Virus record (IMG/VR): IMGVR_UViG_2585427739_000005
Direction: 5' to 3' (one strand)
Source: a virus
Lineage: Duplodnaviria; Heunggongvirae; Uroviricota; Caudoviricetes
Length of the DNA: 8,765 bases
Shown here: positions 1,293 to 8,765 of the stretch, one piece after another
Layout of the letters: the number at the start of each line of letters is the position of its first letter
How positions within the stretch are numbered: position 1 is the stretch's first letter
Translations under genes and position numbers: made by a program
The notes under the pieces: model-generated
Seen by the model: the letters and a program-made list of their open reading frames with translations, nothing else
Databases searched by the model: none
What the model was told of the DNA's origin: nothing

Positions 1293-1456
1293 GAACGAGT
1301 ATCGAGATGGCACATAGCCTCGCTCAAATTGGAGTCAGGTTTGTGCCAATATCAGTAGAAACAGACGAAGAATTTCATACGTTAGCCGCATCCCTTTCAC
1401 AAAAGCTGGAAATGATGGTGGCGAAAGCAGAAGCAGATGAGAGAGACCAGGTATGA
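1265..1456 (+). CDS. Lambda orf63-like hypothetical protein (63 aa)
   Basis: 192-bp ORF overlapping orf60a by 28 bp, as recalled for lambda orf63; GGGGAG Shine-Dalgarno 5 nt upstream of the ATG. Confidence 0.7.
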   Translation: MHKASPVELRTSIEMAHSLAQIGVRFVPISVETDEEFHTLAASLSQKLEMMVAKAEADERDQV

Positions 1457-1536
1457 CAACCACTGAATGCATTTTTCTGGCAGCGGGCTTCATATTCTGT
1501 GTGCTTATGCTTGCCGACATGGGGCTTGTTCAATGA
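1453..1536 (+). CDS. Candidate micro-ORF, 27 aa, hydrophobic (MTTTECIFLAAGFIFCVLMLADMGLVQ)
   Basis: Seen: its ATG overlaps the orf63 stop (ATGA at 1453-1456) and its stop overlaps the next ORF's ATG (ATGA at 1533-1536). Hydrophobic core suggests a single membrane helix. Below the ORF-track size cut-off; no homology evidence. Confidence 0.3.
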   Translation: MTTTECIFLAAGFIFCVLMLADMGLVQ

Positions 1537-1748
1537 CACCTCAGCAAGAAAACGCCCTTCGCAGCATTGCCCGTCAGGCTAATTCTGAAATCAAAAAAGC
1601 CAGACAGCAGTTTCCGGATAAAAACGTCGATGACATTTGCCGTAGCGTACTAAAGAAGCACCGCGAAACGGTAACGCTGATGGGATTCACACCGACTCAT
1701 TTAAGCCTGGCGATCGGCATGTTGAACGGCGTCTTTAAGGAACGGTGA
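1533..1748 (+). CDS. Hypothetical phage protein, 71 aa (MTPQQENALRSIARQANSEIKKARQQF...)
   Basis: Start chosen at the ATG coupled to the upstream micro-ORF; the track ORF 1467..1748 is the same frame from an earlier ATG with no Shine-Dalgarno. Sits where lambda has orf61 but I cannot confirm it is the same protein. Confidence 0.5.
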   Translation: MTPQQENALRSIARQANSEIKKARQQFPDKNVDDICRSVLKKHRETVTLMGFTPTHLSLAIGMLNGVFKER

Positions 1749-1768
1749 ACATGAAAAGCAAAATCATC

Positions 1769-1791
1769 AGGGAGCTACAGGCTCCTTTTTT
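1769..1791 (+). terminator. Candidate rho-independent terminator
   Basis: Seen: stem AGGGAGC / GCTCCTT (7 bp including one G-U pair) with loop TACAG, followed by TTTTTTATTATT. Confidence 0.45.
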
Positions 1792-1846
1792 ATTATTCGC
1801 ATTCACCCTCAAGCGTATTAACCAACAATTCAGGGATTAATGAAAG

Positions 1847-2068
1847 ATGGCAGACATAATTGATTCAGCATCAGAAATTGAAGAATTACAGCGCAACACA
1901 GCAATAAAAATGCGCCGCCTGAACCACCAGGCTATATCTGCCACTCATTGTTGTGAGTGTGGCGATCCGATAGATGAACGAAGACGACTGGCCGTTCATG
2001 GTTGTCGGACTTGTGCCAGTTGCCAGCAAGATCTGGAGCTTATCAGTAAACAGAGAGGTTCGAAGTGA
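1847..2068 (+). CDS. TraR/DksA-family C4-type zinc-finger protein (73 aa)
   Basis: Motif CCECGDPIDERRRLAVHGCRTCASCQ fits the TraR/DksA pattern CxxCGxPIxExRR...CxxCQ. This family is common in the early region of lambdoid prophages. Confidence 0.8.
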   Translation: MADIIDSASEIEELQRNTAIKMRRLNHQAISATHCCECGDPIDERRRLAVHGCRTCASCQQDLELISKQRGSK

Positions 2069-2472
2069 GCGAAATTAACTCTCAGGCACTGCGTGAAGCG
2101 GCAGAGAAAGCCGGTGAAGATAAGTGGCAGGCTAAAAAAATAAATGGTGATTTTTTCGTTATTCGTCACGGTAGTTATACAAGACAGCATGGCTACACAT
2201 CGTATCAACCCATTGCGGAGATTGATTGTAAGCCAGTCCGGGATTTTGTTGCCAAGGCTAATCCGGCTACCGTGCTGGAATTACTGGATGAACTGGAAGC
2301 AGCAAAAAAGCGCATTGCAGAACTGGAAGCGCGGGAAATACTGCTCCCGGAACGTAGCAGCATGCTTCATCGAACAGATTTTCACGATGATTACCAAACG
2401 GTAATGGCATACAAAGTTTCTGAAGTCATCGATGCAATCCGCGCTACTGGCATTCGCATCAAAGGAGAGTGA
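2065..2472 (+). CDS. Ead/Ea22-like phage protein (135 aa), likely coiled-coil C-terminal region
   Basis: GTG start overlaps the upstream stop (GTGA) with GAGAGG Shine-Dalgarno 6 nt upstream. Segment PATVLELLDELEAAKKRIAELEARE resembles the Ead/Ea22-like family as I recall it. An SphI site at 2360-2365, absent from recalled lambda, argues it is not lambda ea22 itself. Confidence 0.5.
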   Translation: MSEINSQALREAAEKAGEDKWQAKKINGDFFVIRHGSYTRQHGYTSYQPIAEIDCKPVRDFVAKANPATVLELLDELEAAKKRIAELEAREILLPERSSMLHRTDFHDDYQTVMAYKVSEVIDAIRATGIRIKGE

Positions 2473-2473
2473 G

Positions 2474-3229
2474 ATGATTCACTACCACGGTGGGCCTATT
2501 ACTCCTGATACGTGCGCAATGAGAGCATGGAAAGGGCGACATGCGTTTATCAGTTTTGCGCATTCAGGCCAGATCAATCTCGCGGCTGAATACTGTCAGT
2601 AGTTCGCGCTGGACAACGGTGCATTCACCGCCTGGAAAGCAGCTGGCAAAAACAAAATCGACTGGAGCGATTACTACGAGTTTGTTGCTCGCTGGAAGAA
2701 TCACCCAGGATTCGATTTTGCCATTATCCCGGATGTTATTGATGGCGGAGAGGAGGAAAATGATGCGCTTCTGAATGAGTGGCCTCACGGAAAACTAGCT
2801 GGCGTTCCAGTGTGGCACATGAATGAAAGTGACGAGCGATTTATTCATTTGTGCAATGAGTTTCCGCGAGTGGCTATCGGTAGTTGTGGCGACTATGACG
2901 TAAAGCGCCCAACTCTTGCGGTAGCCAGAATGAAAGACCTGATTCGTCACATTGTTGATGGGCATGGTCAGCCGGTTACGAAACTACATGGATTGCGCAT
3001 GTTAAATCCGCTGATATTCACAAAATTACCCTTAGCCAGCGCAGATAGTACGAACGTCGCTCGAAACATCGGTATTGATAAAGCCTGGTCTGGGGCTTAT
3101 GCACCTGCAAGTAAAGAGACACGCGCAGCATTAATGGTAGAACGGATTGAGGCACACAATAGCCCTGGTTCTCTTGCGTATTGTGAACAACGCGACCGCT
3201 TTGAAATGCAATTGCAACTAGCAGTTTAA
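2474..3229 (+). pseudogene. TGT-like (queuine/7-deazaguanine transglycosylase, DpdA-like) gene interrupted by an in-frame amber codon at 2600-2602
   Basis: Seen: strong AAAGGAGAG Shine-Dalgarno before ATG 2474; one frame runs 2474..3229 with a single TAG after codon 42 (...EYCQ*FALDNG...), preceded by CAG. Inference: AIIPDVID, VAIGSCGD and ASADSTNVARNIG occur in the same order as recalled TGT motifs MIFDEC, YAVGGLAVGE and DCVMPTRNARNG. Family assignment is from memory, not searched. Confidence 0.5.
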
Positions 3230-3239
3230 GGACTAACAA

Positions 3240-3815
3240 ATGACCACTATTACCAAAGAACGTATTGAATTGTTCATTAAAAATCCGCTTGAAAACGGGC
3301 TTACTCGTGACGAACAAATGGAACTGGCACGAATTGCACTGGCATCACTGGGAGCAGAACCTGTAAGCCAAACTTACAACTTGCCAGAATTAATCGAAGG
3401 CATGGAGGTTTCCATTGATGTAAGCACTTGTGATGCGGATTTAGGTAATCGCTATTTCGGTACCGTCACCGAGGCGTTAGAACTTGATACTGCCAAGAAT
3501 GGTTACATCCTCCTGGTTCAGGACGCAGAGCCAAACTTCGATATAAATGGCAATTCTCCGGTAACTCCGGATGGTTGGGTTATAGTGCCGAAGAAACTAA
3601 CCGCTGAGAACGGCGCTAAGGGTGTGCTATCCGGTGAATTTTCAGAAACTACGTTTATAAGCTGCCCGGAATGCTTTGGTGATGATGATTGCGAAACTTG
3701 TGACGGCAGCGGAAGAATCGAAATCAAGGTTCCAGTCAGTTGGACAACTATCAAAACTATTTGGGCTAAAGGGTGTGAGTACTTTTCAATAGTAGCACCG
3801 CAGCAAGATGGGTGA
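3240..3815 (+). CDS. Hypothetical protein (191 aa) with a C-terminal DnaJ-like cysteine motif CPECFGDDDCETCDGSGR
   Basis: AAGGA Shine-Dalgarno 7 nt upstream of ATG 3240. CxxCxGxxxCxxCxGxG resembles the DnaJ cysteine-rich zinc-binding repeat. A KpnI site at 3459-3464 is absent from recalled lambda. Function unknown. Confidence 0.7.
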   Translation: MTTITKERIELFIKNPLENGLTRDEQMELARIALASLGAEPVSQTYNLPELIEGMEVSIDVSTCDADLGNRYFGTVTEALELDTAKNGYILLVQDAEPNFDINGNSPVTPDGWVIVPKKLTAENGAKGVLSGEFSETTFISCPECFGDDDCETCDGSGRIEIKVPVSWTTIKTIWAKGCEYFSIVAPQQDG

Positions 3816-3902
3816 TGAAAACAAGTATTTATAACTTAAAAGCATTAAAAAATCGCTTATAGATCAAAAGAAATCTACGTCAAATATTACTATATTTCAA
3901 TG

Positions 3903-3911
3903 TGTTATAAT
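3903..3911 (+). promoter_or_regulatory. Candidate extended -10 promoter element (TGTTATAAT) in an AT-rich intergenic island (3816-3941)
   Basis: Seen: TGnTATAAT at 3903-3911, about 30 bp upstream of ATG 3942; no good -35 hexamer. Confidence 0.4.
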
Positions 3912-3941
3912 TACCCCGTCCATAAAATGGGGGGACACAAA

Positions 3942-4184
3942 ATGTTCAAACGCTGCATCGCCAAGTGTGGAAGCACACCTGACATCCAAGCTTTTATTAA
4001 TGAAGATGGTAAGCTTGTTGTTGAGAGGAGTGGTCCTTTTATTAGCAAACAACTTATCATTACCTCTCCAGCGGAGATGGCCGGGGAATGGATAGTTTCT
4101 GAACCAGAGGAGTTGCACATCCCGCTTCCTTATGGCCCTCAGGGACTGATTTATAACCGTTATGTTCAGAAGGAGGCGGGTTGA
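3942..4184 (+). CDS. Hypothetical small protein (80 aa; MFKRCIAKCGSTPDIQAFINEDGKLVVERSG...)
   Basis: GGGGGGA Shine-Dalgarno 6 nt upstream of ATG 3942. The track ORF 3900..4184 is the same frame from an ATG that lies inside the candidate promoter. HindIII sites at 3988 and 4011 are absent from recalled lambda. Confidence 0.5.
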   Translation: MFKRCIAKCGSTPDIQAFINEDGKLVVERSGPFISKQLIITSPAEMAGEWIVSEPEELHIPLPYGPQGLIYNRYVQKEAG

Positions 4185-4443
4185 CAATGTCAGGCATAAC
4201 ATCGCCGAGAAATCGAAAGAAAAACAGAACAAGGTAAACGTTGACCTTGCAGCATCAGGCATGGAGTACAGAGAGCGCCTTAACATACCTGTTATCACTG
4301 AGCAGGTATCATGAGAGCAACCTGAGCACTCACGCGAGTATTTCATGGAGCGCATCAGATACTATCGCGAGCAGTCGTTAAACATGCCCAAGGGAAGCAA
4401 CCCATGGTATATCGATATGGATGAACAGAACGCCAAGAAGTAA
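4162..4443 (+). pseudogene. 282-bp ORF at the position of lambda ea8.5, interrupted by an in-frame TGA at 4312-4314
   Basis: Seen: ATG 4162 to TAA 4441-4443 is one frame with a single internal TGA. Length and distance from xis match recalled lambda ea8.5 coordinates to within 1 bp. The translation has no Cys, and NcoI (4402) and ClaI (4411) sites not recalled in lambda lie inside it, so identity with ea8.5 is uncertain. Confidence 0.35.
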
Positions 4444-4463
4444 ACGCAATTTGAACGAATGCG

Positions 4464-4489
4464 AACCCGCCGAGTGCGGGTTTTCTTTT
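4464..4489 (+). terminator. Rho-independent terminator (first of a tandem pair)
   Basis: Seen: stem AACCCGC / GCGGGTT (7 bp), loop CGAGT, then TTCTTTT. Confidence 0.6.
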
Positions 4490-4493
4490 ATCT

Positions 4494-4519
4494 GAACTCG
4501 CTACGGCGAGTTTTGTTTT
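4494..4519 (+). terminator. Rho-independent terminator (second of a tandem pair)
   Basis: Seen: stem ACTCGC / GCGAGT (6 bp), loop TACG, then TTTTGTTTT. Confidence 0.55.
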
Positions 4520-4532
4520 ATGGCGATGATAA

Positions 4533-4700
4533 ATGCACTTCCGAGTTACAGGTGAATGGAATGGAGAACCATTCAACAGAGTTATCGAAGCCGAGAACAT
4601 CAGCGACTGCTATAACCACTGGATGCTGTGGGCGCAGATAGCACATGCAGACGTAACCAATATTCGAATTGAAGAACTGAAAGAACACCAAGCCGCCTGA
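4533..4700 (+). CDS. Lambda orf55-like hypothetical protein (55 aa; MHFRVTGEWNGEPFNRVIEAENISDCYNHWMLWAQIAHADVTNIRIEELKEHQAA)
   Basis: Seen: ORF below the track cut-off, ending inside the next terminator. Maps exactly onto my recalled coordinates for the 55-aa hypothetical gene next to xis in lambda. Weak Shine-Dalgarno. Confidence 0.5.
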   Translation: MHFRVTGEWNGEPFNRVIEAENISDCYNHWMLWAQIAHADVTNIRIEELKEHQAA

Positions 4701-4713
4701 TGGCGGTTTTTTC
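4691..4713 (+). terminator. Rho-independent terminator overlapping the orf55-like stop codon
   Basis: Seen: stem AGCCGCC / GGCGGTT, loop TGAT (holds the TGA stop), then TTTTTTCTT. Confidence 0.6.
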
Positions 4714-4727
4714 TTGCGTGTAATTGC
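4714..4727 (+). promoter_or_regulatory. CII-type activator site TTGC-N6-TTGC of the int promoter (pI-like) just upstream of xis
   Basis: Seen: TTGCGTGTAATTGC at 4714-4727, about 13 bp upstream of the xis ATG. Established: lambda pI is CII-activated at TTGCN6TTGC and its transcript starts inside xis so Int is made without Xis. Confidence 0.6.
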
Positions 4728-4739
4728 GGAGACTTTGCG

Positions 4740-4958
4740 ATGTACTTGACACTTCAGGAGTGGAACGCTCGCCAGCGACGCCCAAGAAGCCTTGAAACAG
4801 TTCGTCGATGGGTGCGCGAATGCAGGATATTCCCTCCTCCGGTTAAGGATGGAAGAGAATATCTGTTCCACGAATCAGCGGTAAAGGTTGACTTAAATCG
4901 ACCAGTAACAGGTAGCCTTTTGAAGAGGATCAGAAATGGGAAGAAGGCGAAGTCATGA
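4740..4958 (+). CDS. xis: Excisionase Xis (72 aa)
   Basis: Translation MYLTLQEWNARQRRPRSLETVRRWVRECRIFPPPVKDGREYLFHESAVKVDLNRPVTGSLLKRIRNGKKAKS matches recalled lambda Xis; 23-bp overlap with int as in lambda. Confidence 0.95.
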   Translation: MYLTLQEWNARQRRPRSLETVRRWVRECRIFPPPVKDGREYLFHESAVKVDLNRPVTGSLLKRIRNGKKAKS

Positions 4959-6006
4959 GCGCCGGGATTTACCCCCTAACCTTTATATAAGAAACAATGG
5001 ATATTACTGCTACAGGGACCCAAGGACGGGTAAAGAGTTTGGATTAGGCCGAGACAGGCGAATCGCAATCACTGAAGCTATACAGGCCAACATTGAGTTA
5101 TTTTCAGGACACAAACACAAGCCTCTGACAGCGAGAATCAACAGTGATAATTCCGTTACGTTACATTCATGGCTTGATCGCTACGAAAAAATCCTGGCCA
5201 GCAGAGGAATCAAGCAGAAGACACTCATAAATTACATGAGCAAAATTAAAGCAATAAGGAGGGGTCTGCCTGATGCTCCACTTGAAGACATCACCACAAA
5301 AGAAATTGCGGCAATGCTCAATGGATACATAGACGAGGGCAAGGCGGCGTCAGCCAAGTTAATCAGATCAACACTGAGCGATGCATTCCGAGAGGCAATA
5401 GCTGAAGGCCATATAACAACAAACCCTGTCGCTGCCACTCGCGCAGCAAAATCAGAGGTAAGGAGATCAAGACTTACGGCTGACGAATACCTGAAAATTT
5501 ATCAAGCAGCAGAATCATCACCATGTTGGCTCAGACTTGCAATGGAACTGGCTGTTGTTACCGGGCAACGAGTTGGTGATTTATGCGAAATGAAGTGGTC
5601 TGATATCGTAGATGGATATCTTTATGTCGAGCAAAGCAAAACAGGCGTAAAAATTGCCATCCCAACAGCATTGCATGTTGATGCTCTCGGAATATCAATG
5701 AAGGAAACACTTGATAAATGCAAAGAGATTCTTGGCGGAGAAACCATAATTGCATCTACTCGTCGCGAACCGCTTTCATCCGGCACAGTATCAAGGTATT
5801 TTATGCGCGCACGAAAAGCATCAGGTCTTTCCTTCGAAGGGGATCCGCCTACCTTTCACGAGTTGCGCAGTTTGTCTGCAAGACTCTATGAGAAGCAGAT
5901 AAGCGATAAGTTTGCTCAACATCTTCTCGGGCATAAGTCGGACACCATGGCATCACAGTATCGTGATGACAGAGGCAGGGAGTGGGACAAAATTGAAATC
6001 AAATAA
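4936..6006 (+). CDS. int: Tyrosine site-specific integrase Int (356 aa), lambda type
   Basis: Full-length match to recalled lambda Int (MGRRRSHERRDLPPNLYIRNNGYYCYRDPRTGKEF...REWDKIEIK) with a few apparent substitutions. Recalled lambda BamHI, NruI and NcoI sites all present at the expected offsets. Confidence 0.97.
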   Translation: MGRRRSHERRDLPPNLYIRNNGYYCYRDPRTGKEFGLGRDRRIAITEAIQANIELFSGHKHKPLTARINSDNSVTLHSWLDRYEKILASRGIKQKTLINYMSKIKAIRRGLPDAPLEDITTKEIAAMLNGYIDEGKAASAKLIRSTLSDAFREAIAEGHITTNPVAATRAAKSEVRRSRLTADEYLKIYQAAESSPCWLRLAMELAVVTGQRVGDLCEMKWSDIVDGYLYVEQSKTGVKIAIPTALHVDALGISMKETLDKCKEILGGETIIASTRREPLSSGTVSRYFMRARKASGLSFEGDPPTFHELRSLSARLYEKQISDKFAQHLLGHKSDTMASQYRDDRGREWDKIEIK

Positions 6007-6101
6007 TGATTTTATTTTGACTGATAGTGACCTGTTCGTTGCAACAAATTGATAAGCAATGCTTTTTTATAATGCCAACTTAGTATAAAAAAGCAGGCTT
6101 C
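6007..6101. other. attL (B-O-P') prophage-host junction: P' arm with Int arm-type and IHF sites, 15-bp core, bacterial B arm
   Basis: Seen: core TTAGTATAAAAAAGC at 6080-6094 is the reverse complement of the lambda core GCTTTTTTATACTAA. P' arm holds arm-type site ATAGTGACCT (6024-6033) and IHF-like GTTGCAACAAATTGATAAGCAATGC. The string AATGCTTTTTTATAATGCCAACTTAGTATAAAAAAGCAGGCTTCA matches the recalled wild-type attL. Confidence 0.9.
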
Positions 6102-7439: not shown

Positions 7440-7645
<206 letters not shown>

Positions 7646-7657
7646 ACATGGCGCTTT

Positions 7658-8067
7658 TTACATCTGACGGTTTTTATTGAAGTTAATCAAACTACCCGCC
7701 TTGATAATCTCGCGCTCTTCAGCAGTCAGACTTTCCATATAGAGCGTAATTTCCGTTACCGGCGCATCTTCATGGATCACATAACCTTTAAACGTCGTAC
7801 CCGGATTATCCAGCGCCGCTTTAATGCCAGGGATGTAAATGTAATCCCCCACTTCAAAGGTTGGCACTTCCGCCATCTGCAGCGGTAACATCCCCCAGTT
7901 GATGACGTTAGAACGGTAGCGTTTAGTCGCGTACTCTTCGGAAATATTCGCCAGACCGCCAATCACACGCTGGCAGCTCGCCGCCTGTTCACGCGCAGAA
8001 CCATCGCCTGGTTTCACCGCATATACCATGCTGCCAATTTCAGTTTGCAGCGGATCAATATGCTCCT
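7658..8067 (-). pseudogene. ybhJ: 3' portion of an aconitase-family hydratase gene (YbhJ-like), truncated by IS2 insertion at 8068
   Basis: Translation contains an aconitase C-terminal-domain-like segment ([44 protein letters not shown]). The frame runs straight into the IS2 end; the track ORF's first ~12 codons are IS2 sequence. The gene's 5' part would lie beyond the IS2, outside the window. Confidence 0.7.
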
Positions 8068-8765
8068 TGGATTTGCCCCTATATTTCCAGACATCTGTTA
8101 TCACTTAACCCATTACAAGCCCGCTGCCGCAGATATTCCCGTGGCGAGCGATAACCCAGCGCACTATGCGGATGCCATTCGTTATAATGCTCGAACGCCT
8201 CTGCAAGGTTCTTTGCTGCCGTTAACCCGTCTGGTTTGGGCATGATACTGATGTAGTCACGCTTTATCGTTTTCACGAAGCTCTCTGCTATTCCGTTACT
8301 CTCCGGACTCCGCACCGCCGTGTTCTTCGGTTCAAGTCCCAACATCCGGGCGAACTGGCGTGTTTCATTAGCCCGGTAGCATGAACCATTATCCGTCAGC
8401 CACTCCACTGGAGACGGCGGAAGATCGTTGCCGAAGCGGCGTTCCACCGCTCCCAGCATGACGTCCTGTACTGTTTCACTGTTGAAGCCGCCGGTAGTGA
8501 CCGCCCAGTGCAGTGCCTCACGATCACAGCAGTCCAGCGCGAACGTGACACGCAGTCTCTCTCCGTTATCACAGCAGAACTCGAACCCGTCAGAGCACCA
8601 TCGCTGATTGCTTTCTTTCACGGCCACTCTGCCTGTATGTGCCCGTTTCGATGGCGGTACAGCAGGTTTTCGCTCAAGCAACAGCGCATTCTGGCGCATG
8701 ATCCGGTAAACACGTTTGGCATTGATCGCAGGCATACCATCAAGTTCTGCCTGTCTGCGAAGCAG
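8068..8765 (-). mobile_element. IS2 insertion sequence (IS3 family), right end through most of insD; truncated by the window end
   Basis: Seen: terminal inverted repeat TGGATTTGCCCCTATATTTCCAGACATCTGTTATCACTTAACCC starts at 8068 (recalled IS2 right end); the InsD ORF follows on the minus strand. Confidence 0.9.
8079..8765 (-). CDS. insD: IS2 transposase OrfB/InsD (DDE integrase core), 5' end beyond the window
   Basis: Translation (...[53 protein letters not shown]...[10 protein letters not shown]) matches recalled IS2 InsD; the frame is open to the window edge. Confidence 0.9.

Follow-up and report, generated by a model that had tools for sequence, protein, structure and literature searches.

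What replaces the genes between exo and xis in a lambda-type prophage, and is the replacement still working cargo? The question is raised by an 8765-base stretch of DNA (the window; IMG/VR record IMGVR_UViG_2585427739_000005), which comprises the int-proximal end of a lambda-type prophage and the adjoining host DNA. The prophage lies at the classical lambda attachment site of Escherichia coli, between gal and bio. Our overall interpretation, which we hold to be likely, is that this prophage end carries a block of mosaic cassettes, 2371 bp in place of 1013 bp of lambda, with partly decayed cargo. The block is called partly decayed because two of its genes are interrupted: a homolog of the phage DNA transglycosylase gene dpdA is cut at codon 43 by a TAG, and a gene for a homolog of the DNA polymerase III theta subunit is cut by a TGA.

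We used blastn against lambda (NC_001416) as the reference for collinearity. Positions 1 to 2106 of the window match lambda at 97.0% identity over 2107 columns, with 62 mismatches and one 1-nucleotide (nt) gap, and positions 4478 to 6094 are likewise collinear at 98.6% identity. Between these collinear blocks, the match to lambda is limited to a 29-nt island at 2447 to 2475, corresponding to the end of ea22. The foreign interval, 2107 to 4477 on the plus strand, stands in place of lambda 29341 to 30353, which holds ea22 from codon 15 onward, a spacer, and ea8.5; its GC content is 45.7%, compared with 43.6% in the replaced lambda segment. The left crossover falls within ea22, after codon 14, and the right crossover (4477/4478) falls within a terminator-like hairpin, about 33 nt beyond the end of ea8.5 in lambda. 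In the map of open reading frames (ORFs) and the lambda alignment, the block sits between exo and xis/int on the strand of the pL operon genes, bounded by the conserved orf60a-orf63-orf61-orf73 set on one side and orf55-xis-int on the other. Slot, strand, left set, right set, and the presence of an Ea22-family gene are all shared with the exo-xis "ea" region of lambdoid and Shiga toxin (Stx) phages. The difference from lambda itself is that the ea22 body and ea8.5 are replaced and four genes without a lambda counterpart are added.

An earlier sequence-only reading of the window had anticipated much of this layout. It estimated the exo-to-int distance to be 1357 bp longer than in lambda, and from the exo stop to the int start there are indeed 3823 bp in the window against 2466 bp in lambda; its description of bet, exo, orf60a, orf63, orf55, xis, and int as near-identical to lambda agrees with the two collinear blocks. 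Pairwise alignment with lambda, the check it proposed, defined the exact breakpoints, and the interval between them is not collinear with the reference. Its boundaries require correction: it placed a module of about 2.7 kb at 1453 to 4443, whereas the foreign part is the 2371 bp from 2107 to 4477, so that the left boundary was set about 650 bp too far to the left. The stretch from 1453 to 2106, counted as foreign in that reading, is collinear with lambda and contains an orf61-type ORF, orf73, and the first 14 codons of ea22. All five restriction enzymes named as distinguishing the interval do cut here (HindIII at 3988 and 4011, KpnI at 3459, SphI at 2360, NcoI at 4402, and ClaI at 2428 and 4411), and the first four find no site in the exo-to-int stretch of lambda; ClaI is not distinguishing, however, as lambda has one ClaI site there, at 30294, in ea22.

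The gene whose product has a predictable chemistry lies at 2474 to 3229 (plus strand; 251 codons; phrog_887) and is of the dpdA type. PHROG 887, labeled "queuine tRNA-ribosyltransferase," matches it with an E value of 2e-103. A tblastn search of deposited phages identified homologs of the 251-amino-acid (aa) protein in Salmonella phages SPN3UB (gp54) and BTP1 (93 to 96% identity; 96% in the tblastn comparison), Stx1a phage EH2115 (93%), SfI (69%), SEN1 (37%), HK106 and SE131 (35%), and Salmonella phage 7-11 (34%; by BLASTP, 35% with an E value of 3e-31). Supplementary Data 1 of Hutinet et al. (2019) names these phages among those with DpdA alone, and the SPN3UB accession in that list, YP_007011024, is the matching gene. 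We also built a family profile (A3) from 59 sequences, down to 29% identity. In hhalign, A3 matched phage 9g DpdA with a probability of 98.4% (E value of 9e-15, 152 columns), in an alignment that spans the motif pairs LDNGAF/LDSGAF, PVWH-E/PCFHAGE, KLHGL/KVHGF (the His196 hallmark), and SADST/SCDSS. Residues D47, H172, D191, and S192 are invariant in the 59 sequences, and D87 is at least 90% conserved. When mapped by motif rather than by superposed coordinates, D47, H172, and D191 fall opposite the LDSGAF Asp, the KVHGF His, and the SCDSS Asp of 9g DpdA. In the DpdA of Salmonella Montevideo, Asp95 and Asp256 are the catalytic aspartates, serving as general acid/base and nucleophile (PMC10164549), and the conserved residues of the present family match four features of DpdA and the tRNA-guanine transglycosylase TGT: the Asp that serves as general acid/base, the Asp that recognizes the base, the His196 hallmark, and the Asp nucleophile. 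Because of the near-identical proteins in the published list, the profile match to 9g, and the conserved predicted catalytic residues, we assign the 251-codon gene to the phage DpdA family, within its gamma-proteobacterial group of DpdA-only phages. The family comprises at least 1530 clusters at 50% identity and has no Pfam, NCBIfam, or PADLOC model; the Prokaryotic Genome Annotation Pipeline (PGAP) labels the present protein "hypothetical protein," and phage 9g DpdA itself has no Pfam match. The structural zinc site (CxCxxC...H) of TGT and bacterial DpdA has no equivalent in alignments A1 or A3, neither of which contains a conserved cysteine cluster.

Members of the lambdoid DpdA clade would be expected to modify DNA, with preQ0 (7-cyano-7-deazaguanine) presumably supplied by the host; the latter expectation follows from what is established about queuosine biosynthesis in E. 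coli and from the work of Hutinet et al. (2019), who reported that 9g dpdA expressed alone in E. coli puts host-made preQ0 into plasmid DNA and that a complete queuosine pathway is present in the hosts of DpdA-only phages. None of the phage preQ0 genes, encoding FolE, QueD, QueE, and QueC, is present in the window or, in strain M15, which carries the same block, in the upstream 12 kb. In these respects the locus resembles the DpdA-only phages (group 3 in Hutinet et al. 2019, comprising SPN3UB gp54, BTP1, SfI, HK106, SEN1, and 7-11), which have a gene of the same family, no phage preQ0 genes, and hosts with a queuosine pathway. It differs from SPN3UB in that dpdA occupies the exo-xis slot of a lambda-type prophage, whereas in SPN3UB it follows the replication genes, and it differs from the whole group in that the gene is truncated by a nonsense codon. 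Phages 9g and CAjan (Queuovirinae) encode a homologous enzyme with the same catalytic Asp and His196 motifs; these phages, however, are virulent, carry their own FolE-QueD-QueE-QueC cluster, and have 25 to 32% of G replaced, while in phage 7-11, the measured DpdA-only phage, the modified nucleoside dADG (2′-deoxy-7-amido-7-deazaguanosine) makes up about 0.02% of G (Hutinet et al. 2019). Unlike the bacterial Dpd system (DpdA, DpdB, and DpdC with restriction genes; PDB 7UI4), the locus has no DpdB ATPase, DpdC, or restriction component, and its protein is about 160 residues shorter than bacterial DpdA, has no evident zinc site, and is not detected by PADLOC models.

In Caulobacter phage DMCA a homolog of the 251-aa protein (4705 to 5726 of that locus) directly follows a QueD-like gene, and in Pantoea phage AH07, Arthrobacter phage Sonali, and one IMG/VR locus it follows ParB-like genes, which recall the ParB-like DpdB partner of bacterial DpdA.

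The 251-aa protein might instead not be a DNA transglycosylase, being either a TGT-like fold that acts on tRNA or protein (compare Cap10 of the cyclic oligonucleotide-based antiphage signaling system [CBASS]) or an unrelated triosephosphate isomerase (TIM)-barrel enzyme. We consider this unlikely. The strong profile match to the validated 9g enzyme extends through the catalytic-Asp and His196 motifs, and phage 7-11, which has the 34%-identical homolog and no other pathway gene, contains dADG in its DNA; for a Cap10-like role in particular, the required QueC-like or CD-NTase partner is not present.

Assignment to the DpdA family does not mean that this copy is functional. Codon 43 (2600 to 2602) reads TAG in place of TCG, which encodes a family-invariant Ser, and the stop lies upstream of every predicted catalytic residue. 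All 200 complete E. coli genomes with the dpdA stretch lack the TAG, and no other instance was found; the choice is between a recent inactivation private to this copy and an error of sequencing. Among the 80 closest viral copies of dpdA in IMG/VR, 78 are intact and 2 are broken. E. coli ERP001 carries an independent dpdA nonsense mutation, at codon 69 (gene at 2596 to 3351 of that locus), in a prophage at a different chromosomal site. Because these independent nonsense alleles exist, in ERP001 and in 2 of the 80 viral contigs, inactivation in resident prophages does happen. Five metagenome contigs that matched the 42-aa DpdA stump were rejected as TAG alleles: they are truncated at the contig end and read the wild-type CAG TC..., a selection effect of looking up the exact product.

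By analogy with phage 9g, an intact DpdA would put preQ0 in place of a portion of the guanines as the phage DNA replicates and thereby lower restriction cutting. Could the block be a working anti-restriction island in which dpdA is in fact intact, the TAG being a sequencing error or suppressed, so that the induced phage marks its DNA with host preQ0? The stop is a single base away from the TCG of all 200 E. coli genomes with the gene and is seen in no other sequence, the 3′ part of dpdA has no further damage, and the intactness of 78 of the 80 close viral copies implies that the gene is normally kept. The sequence as given nevertheless shows a TAG stop in frame where Ser is invariant, ahead of all predicted catalytic residues, independent nonsense alleles occur elsewhere, and the neighboring theta gene is dead too; on balance, we judge a working island to be improbable. 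Whatever anti-defence role the block could have, the predictable DpdA function is probably not carried out by this copy. With two of its five cargo genes inactivated here, the locus should not be counted as active anti-defence.

The second interrupted gene, at 4162 to 4443 on the plus strand, encodes a homolog of DNA polymerase III theta, related to E. coli HolE and phage P1 Hot. Like those proteins it clearly matches PF06440 (98.9 bits against a cut-off of 34.6, over residues 12 to 77); unlike them, it is interrupted, by an in-frame TGA at codon 51 (4312 to 4314). Intact relatives, both those of 92% identity and more distant ones, have CGA (Arg) at this position. The TGA is the majority allele (72 of 90 E. 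coli genomes; 28 of 36 IMG/VR loci), with intact CGA in the minority. Programmed read-through of the TGA was considered and rejected, given the intact CGA relatives, the several extra nonsynonymous changes carried by TGA alleles, and a second stop in one of them. Judged from these alleles, the theta gene is a hitch-hiking pseudogene and not a case of recoding. PHROGs holds separate families for the two halves of theta, phrog_10131 and phrog_29833.

We next consider how the block is put together. Its nearest relatives change along its length: positions 1400 to 3360 match Stx1a phage EH2115 (98%); 2107 to 2477 match O104:H4 and other E. coli prophages (100%); 3240 to 3578 match hkaE of HK620 (97%); 3580 to 3805 match sb31 of ST64B, SKA5, and coliphage "Ea22" genes (about 80 to 85%); 3806 to 4197 have no match in deposited phage records; and the theta gene matches Klebsiella phage genes (71 to 74%). 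The crossovers fall at gene junctions. A segment from 3549 to 4535 or to 4712 recurs in prophages at another chromosomal site with TorI-type excision. At least 80% of the block is present in only 30 of 5426 complete E. coli genomes, while some part of it is found in 1804, and among the 80 closest dpdA-bearing viral contigs the full gene set occurs in 5 and none of the neighbors in 52. The sequence-only reading was therefore right to propose a mosaic accessory block in place of lambda ea22/ea8.5, as the alignment and the segment-wise nearest relatives establish. It had also suggested asking whether the gene set travels together, and the answer is that it does not: the pieces travel separately, with relatives that differ by segment. 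Its description of the ORFs as largely uncharacterized is correct for three genes, whereas the other two are identifiable as the DpdA-family transglycosylase and the theta homolog. The block is likely a string of small cassettes, each with its own nearest relatives, linked at short conserved gene junctions.

The first cassette illustrates such a junction. An Ea22-family variant of 135 aa (2065 to 2472, plus strand; Pfam PF13935, phrog_1667) matches PF13935 with an E value of 2.6e-17 and 64.1 bits (cut-off, 27) and is intact in this copy. In pairwise alignment, its first 14 residues and its last 7 (GIRIKGE) match lambda Ea22, while the middle is different and shorter; the lambda-type C-terminal domain (residues 102 to 182) is missing, and only the last 7 residues align with it. 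Ea22 genes have been described as mosaics with variable C-terminal domains (PMC10834534), and the structure of the variant fits this picture. The 29-nt island at its end (2447 to 2475, plus strand) is identical to the end of lambda ea22 at 29 of 29 positions by blastn and holds the Ea22 stop codon as well as the ATG of the following gene and its ribosome-binding site. It is probably a recombination linker between cassettes. The gene upstream of dpdA ends in ...GI(G/R)(V/I)KGE in 36 of 74 IMG/VR contigs.

The arrangement also speaks against two other origins of the extra length. We find it scarcely credible that the block is a discrete mobile element or a mis-assembly within a lambda-like ea region, for although the insertion sequence IS2 is active around the prophage (it cuts the host gene ybhJ at 8068 and lies inside the block in strains 582 and 1297KP), positions 2107 to 4477 contain no transposase, terminal inverted repeat, or target duplication and have no repeats bounding them, lambda's ea8.5 and the body of its ea22 are absent, not split in two, and blastn did not find them on either flank of the block, and the identical arrangement is present in 30 independent complete genomes. 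Recurrence in 30 to 34 complete E. coli genomes means that the block is no assembly artifact. No tRNA genes were found, and no Rfam families were found inside the block.

The remaining two genes of the block are intact in this copy. A 191-aa protein (3240 to 3815, plus strand) has phrog_60 as its sole family assignment, with no Pfam or NCBIfam match. It consists of a short leader, "MTTITKERI...ARIALASL," followed by a highly conserved domain of about 150 aa that ends in a zinc-finger motif, CxxCxGxxxCxxCxGxG. The domain is nearly invariant, and in other E. coli prophages it is fused to DUF550, DUF551, or Ea22-type coiled-coil N termini. PGAP names the protein "molecular chaperone DnaJ," a name that derives from the CxxCxGxG motif alone. 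The AlphaFold2 model of the protein is unusable (predicted local distance difference test score, 34). The second gene, orf81, is an 81-codon ORF at 3942 to 4184 on the plus strand (open from 3900, 94 aa) that matches phrog_9613 with an E value of 1e-50 and corresponds to the PGAP coding sequence WP_000476264; it has no counterpart in deposited phage records and travels with the theta gene in other prophages. A 152-codon antisense ORF at 3897 to 4355 on the minus strand was judged to be probably spurious, as PHROG gave no match and it lies across two recognized plus-strand genes, orf81 and theta.

All five block genes point in the same direction as bet/exo and xis/int. Their position suggests that, upon infection or induction, they would be transcribed with the early-left operon from pL, under N antitermination. 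No sigma-70-like promoter was predicted on the plus strand inside the block. The one sizeable AT-rich gap in the block, 3816 to 3941, contains a perfect extended -10 sequence, TGTTATAAT, at 3903 to 3911 on the plus strand, 31 nt upstream of the orf81 ATG. It is the sole such site in the window, where 0.25 would be expected, and 46 of 200 shuffled sequences had at least one. The orf81-theta pair might have a moron-type promoter of its own. A terminator scan of the plus strand identified two tandem GC-rich hairpins, at 4463 to 4483 and 4494 to 4513, each followed by a U tract; the region 4463 to 4513 folds as RNA with -28.6 kcal/mol (z = -2.7), and the second hairpin is common to lambda, while the first holds the breakpoint. 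Lambdoid morons, extra genes expressed on their own from a dedicated promoter and terminator, offer a possible parallel: the orf81-theta pair follows an AT-rich gap with an extended -10, precedes hairpin/U-tract terminators, and moves between prophages as a unit. It departs from them in that its candidate promoter amounts to one consensus match of low statistical weight and that the pair is located in the early operon, not in the late region.

Several observations weigh against our interpretation of the locus as a whole. Searches of Pfam, NCBIfam, PADLOC, and PDB sequences with the 251-aa protein and with profiles A1 and A3 returned no match, Foldseek against the PDB returned generic TIM barrels alone, and hhalign of the family profile against the single sequence of E. 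coli TGT gave no direct match. A literature search for lambdoid DpdA-only phages with demonstrated modified DNA found none. The codon-43 TAG, having turned up nowhere else, could reflect faulty sequencing, and both the pL transcription and the internal promoter are features that we infer. A literature search for DpdA in lambdoid or temperate coliphages likewise returned nothing past the 2019 supplementary list.

The flanks place the block in its prophage. All phage genes in the window are on the plus strand, in the order bet 3′ end, exo, orf60a, orf63, orf61-type ORF, orf73, block, orf55, xis, and int. We annotated the left flank (1 to 2106) from blastn against lambda, the lambda annotation, the PGAP annotation of strain M15, and PHROG; it comprises the 3′ part of bet (to 436), exo (433 to 1113), orf60a/DUF1317 (1110 to 1292), orf63/DUF1382 (1265 to 1456), the orf61-type ORF (1533 to 1748, open from 1467; phrog_303), orf73, which encodes a TraR/DksA zinc finger (1847 to 2068; PF01258), and the first 42 nt of ea22 (2065 to 2106). 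The lambda reference has one extra A at 30868, corresponding to window position 1593; without it, the ORF at 1467/1533 to 1748 runs beyond the lambda orf61 stop. Because of this extra A, the 61-codon orf61 of lambda looks like a frameshifted short form of a gene present in other lambdoid phages. The right flank (4478 to 6094) comprises orf55 (4533 to 4700), xis (4740 to 4958), int (4936 to 6006), and, at the prophage end adjoining host ybhC, a match to the attachment (att) core, GCTTTTTTATACTAA, at 6080 to 6094.

Downstream of the att core lie host ybhC, two repetitive extragenic palindromic (REP) elements, and the 3′ end of ybhJ, cut by IS2. The two REP elements, repeats of 65 nt of the REP/bacterial interspersed mosaic element type, are 97% identical and lie at 7477 to 7541 and 7570 to 7634, between ybhC and ybhJ; a match to Rfam naRNA4 on the minus strand at 7493 to 7563 (60.7 bits; gathering score, 59.5) overlaps one of them. 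The IS2 (8068 to 8765) leaves the 3′ 410 nt of ybhJ (7658 to 8067). At least 80% of the whole window is found at the same chromosomal site in 34 of the 5426 complete E. coli genomes; in the closest of these, IS2 either is missing or lies within the accessory block instead, as in strains 582 and 1297KP. In the M15 prophage with the same block, the 12 kb that precede the window equivalent contain genes for immunity and replication unlike those of lambda (encoding an S24 repressor and YdaT, along with a different O-type gene), and signs of decay there include a frameshifted ren and an insertion of IS3.

Swapping of accessory cassettes between exo and xis is a known mode of lambdoid phage evolution. 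The locus described here is ordinary lambdoid mosaicism: its components are of known kinds, and the arrangement has already been machine-annotated in dozens of public E. coli genomes. What is gained is a set of precise breakpoints for this variant and the placement of a PGAP "hypothetical protein" in this slot in the phage DpdA family. A further idea, which we regard as a long shot, is that lambdoid and P22-like temperate phages possess a DpdA-only, host-preQ0-dependent enzyme that marks phage DNA at specific sites on induction, and that the repeated independent knock-outs in prophages reflect a cost to the lysogen rather than simple decay. If this were true, the cost could be, for example, modification of the host chromosome or a drain on queuosine precursors. 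About 200 of the 5426 complete E. coli genomes carry this dpdA allele group, which offers a tractable, lambda-type setting for DpdA-only DNA modification by host preQ0. The wider interest lies in the family itself, as the DpdA-only family, for which there is no curated model, is common in temperate enterobacterial phages.

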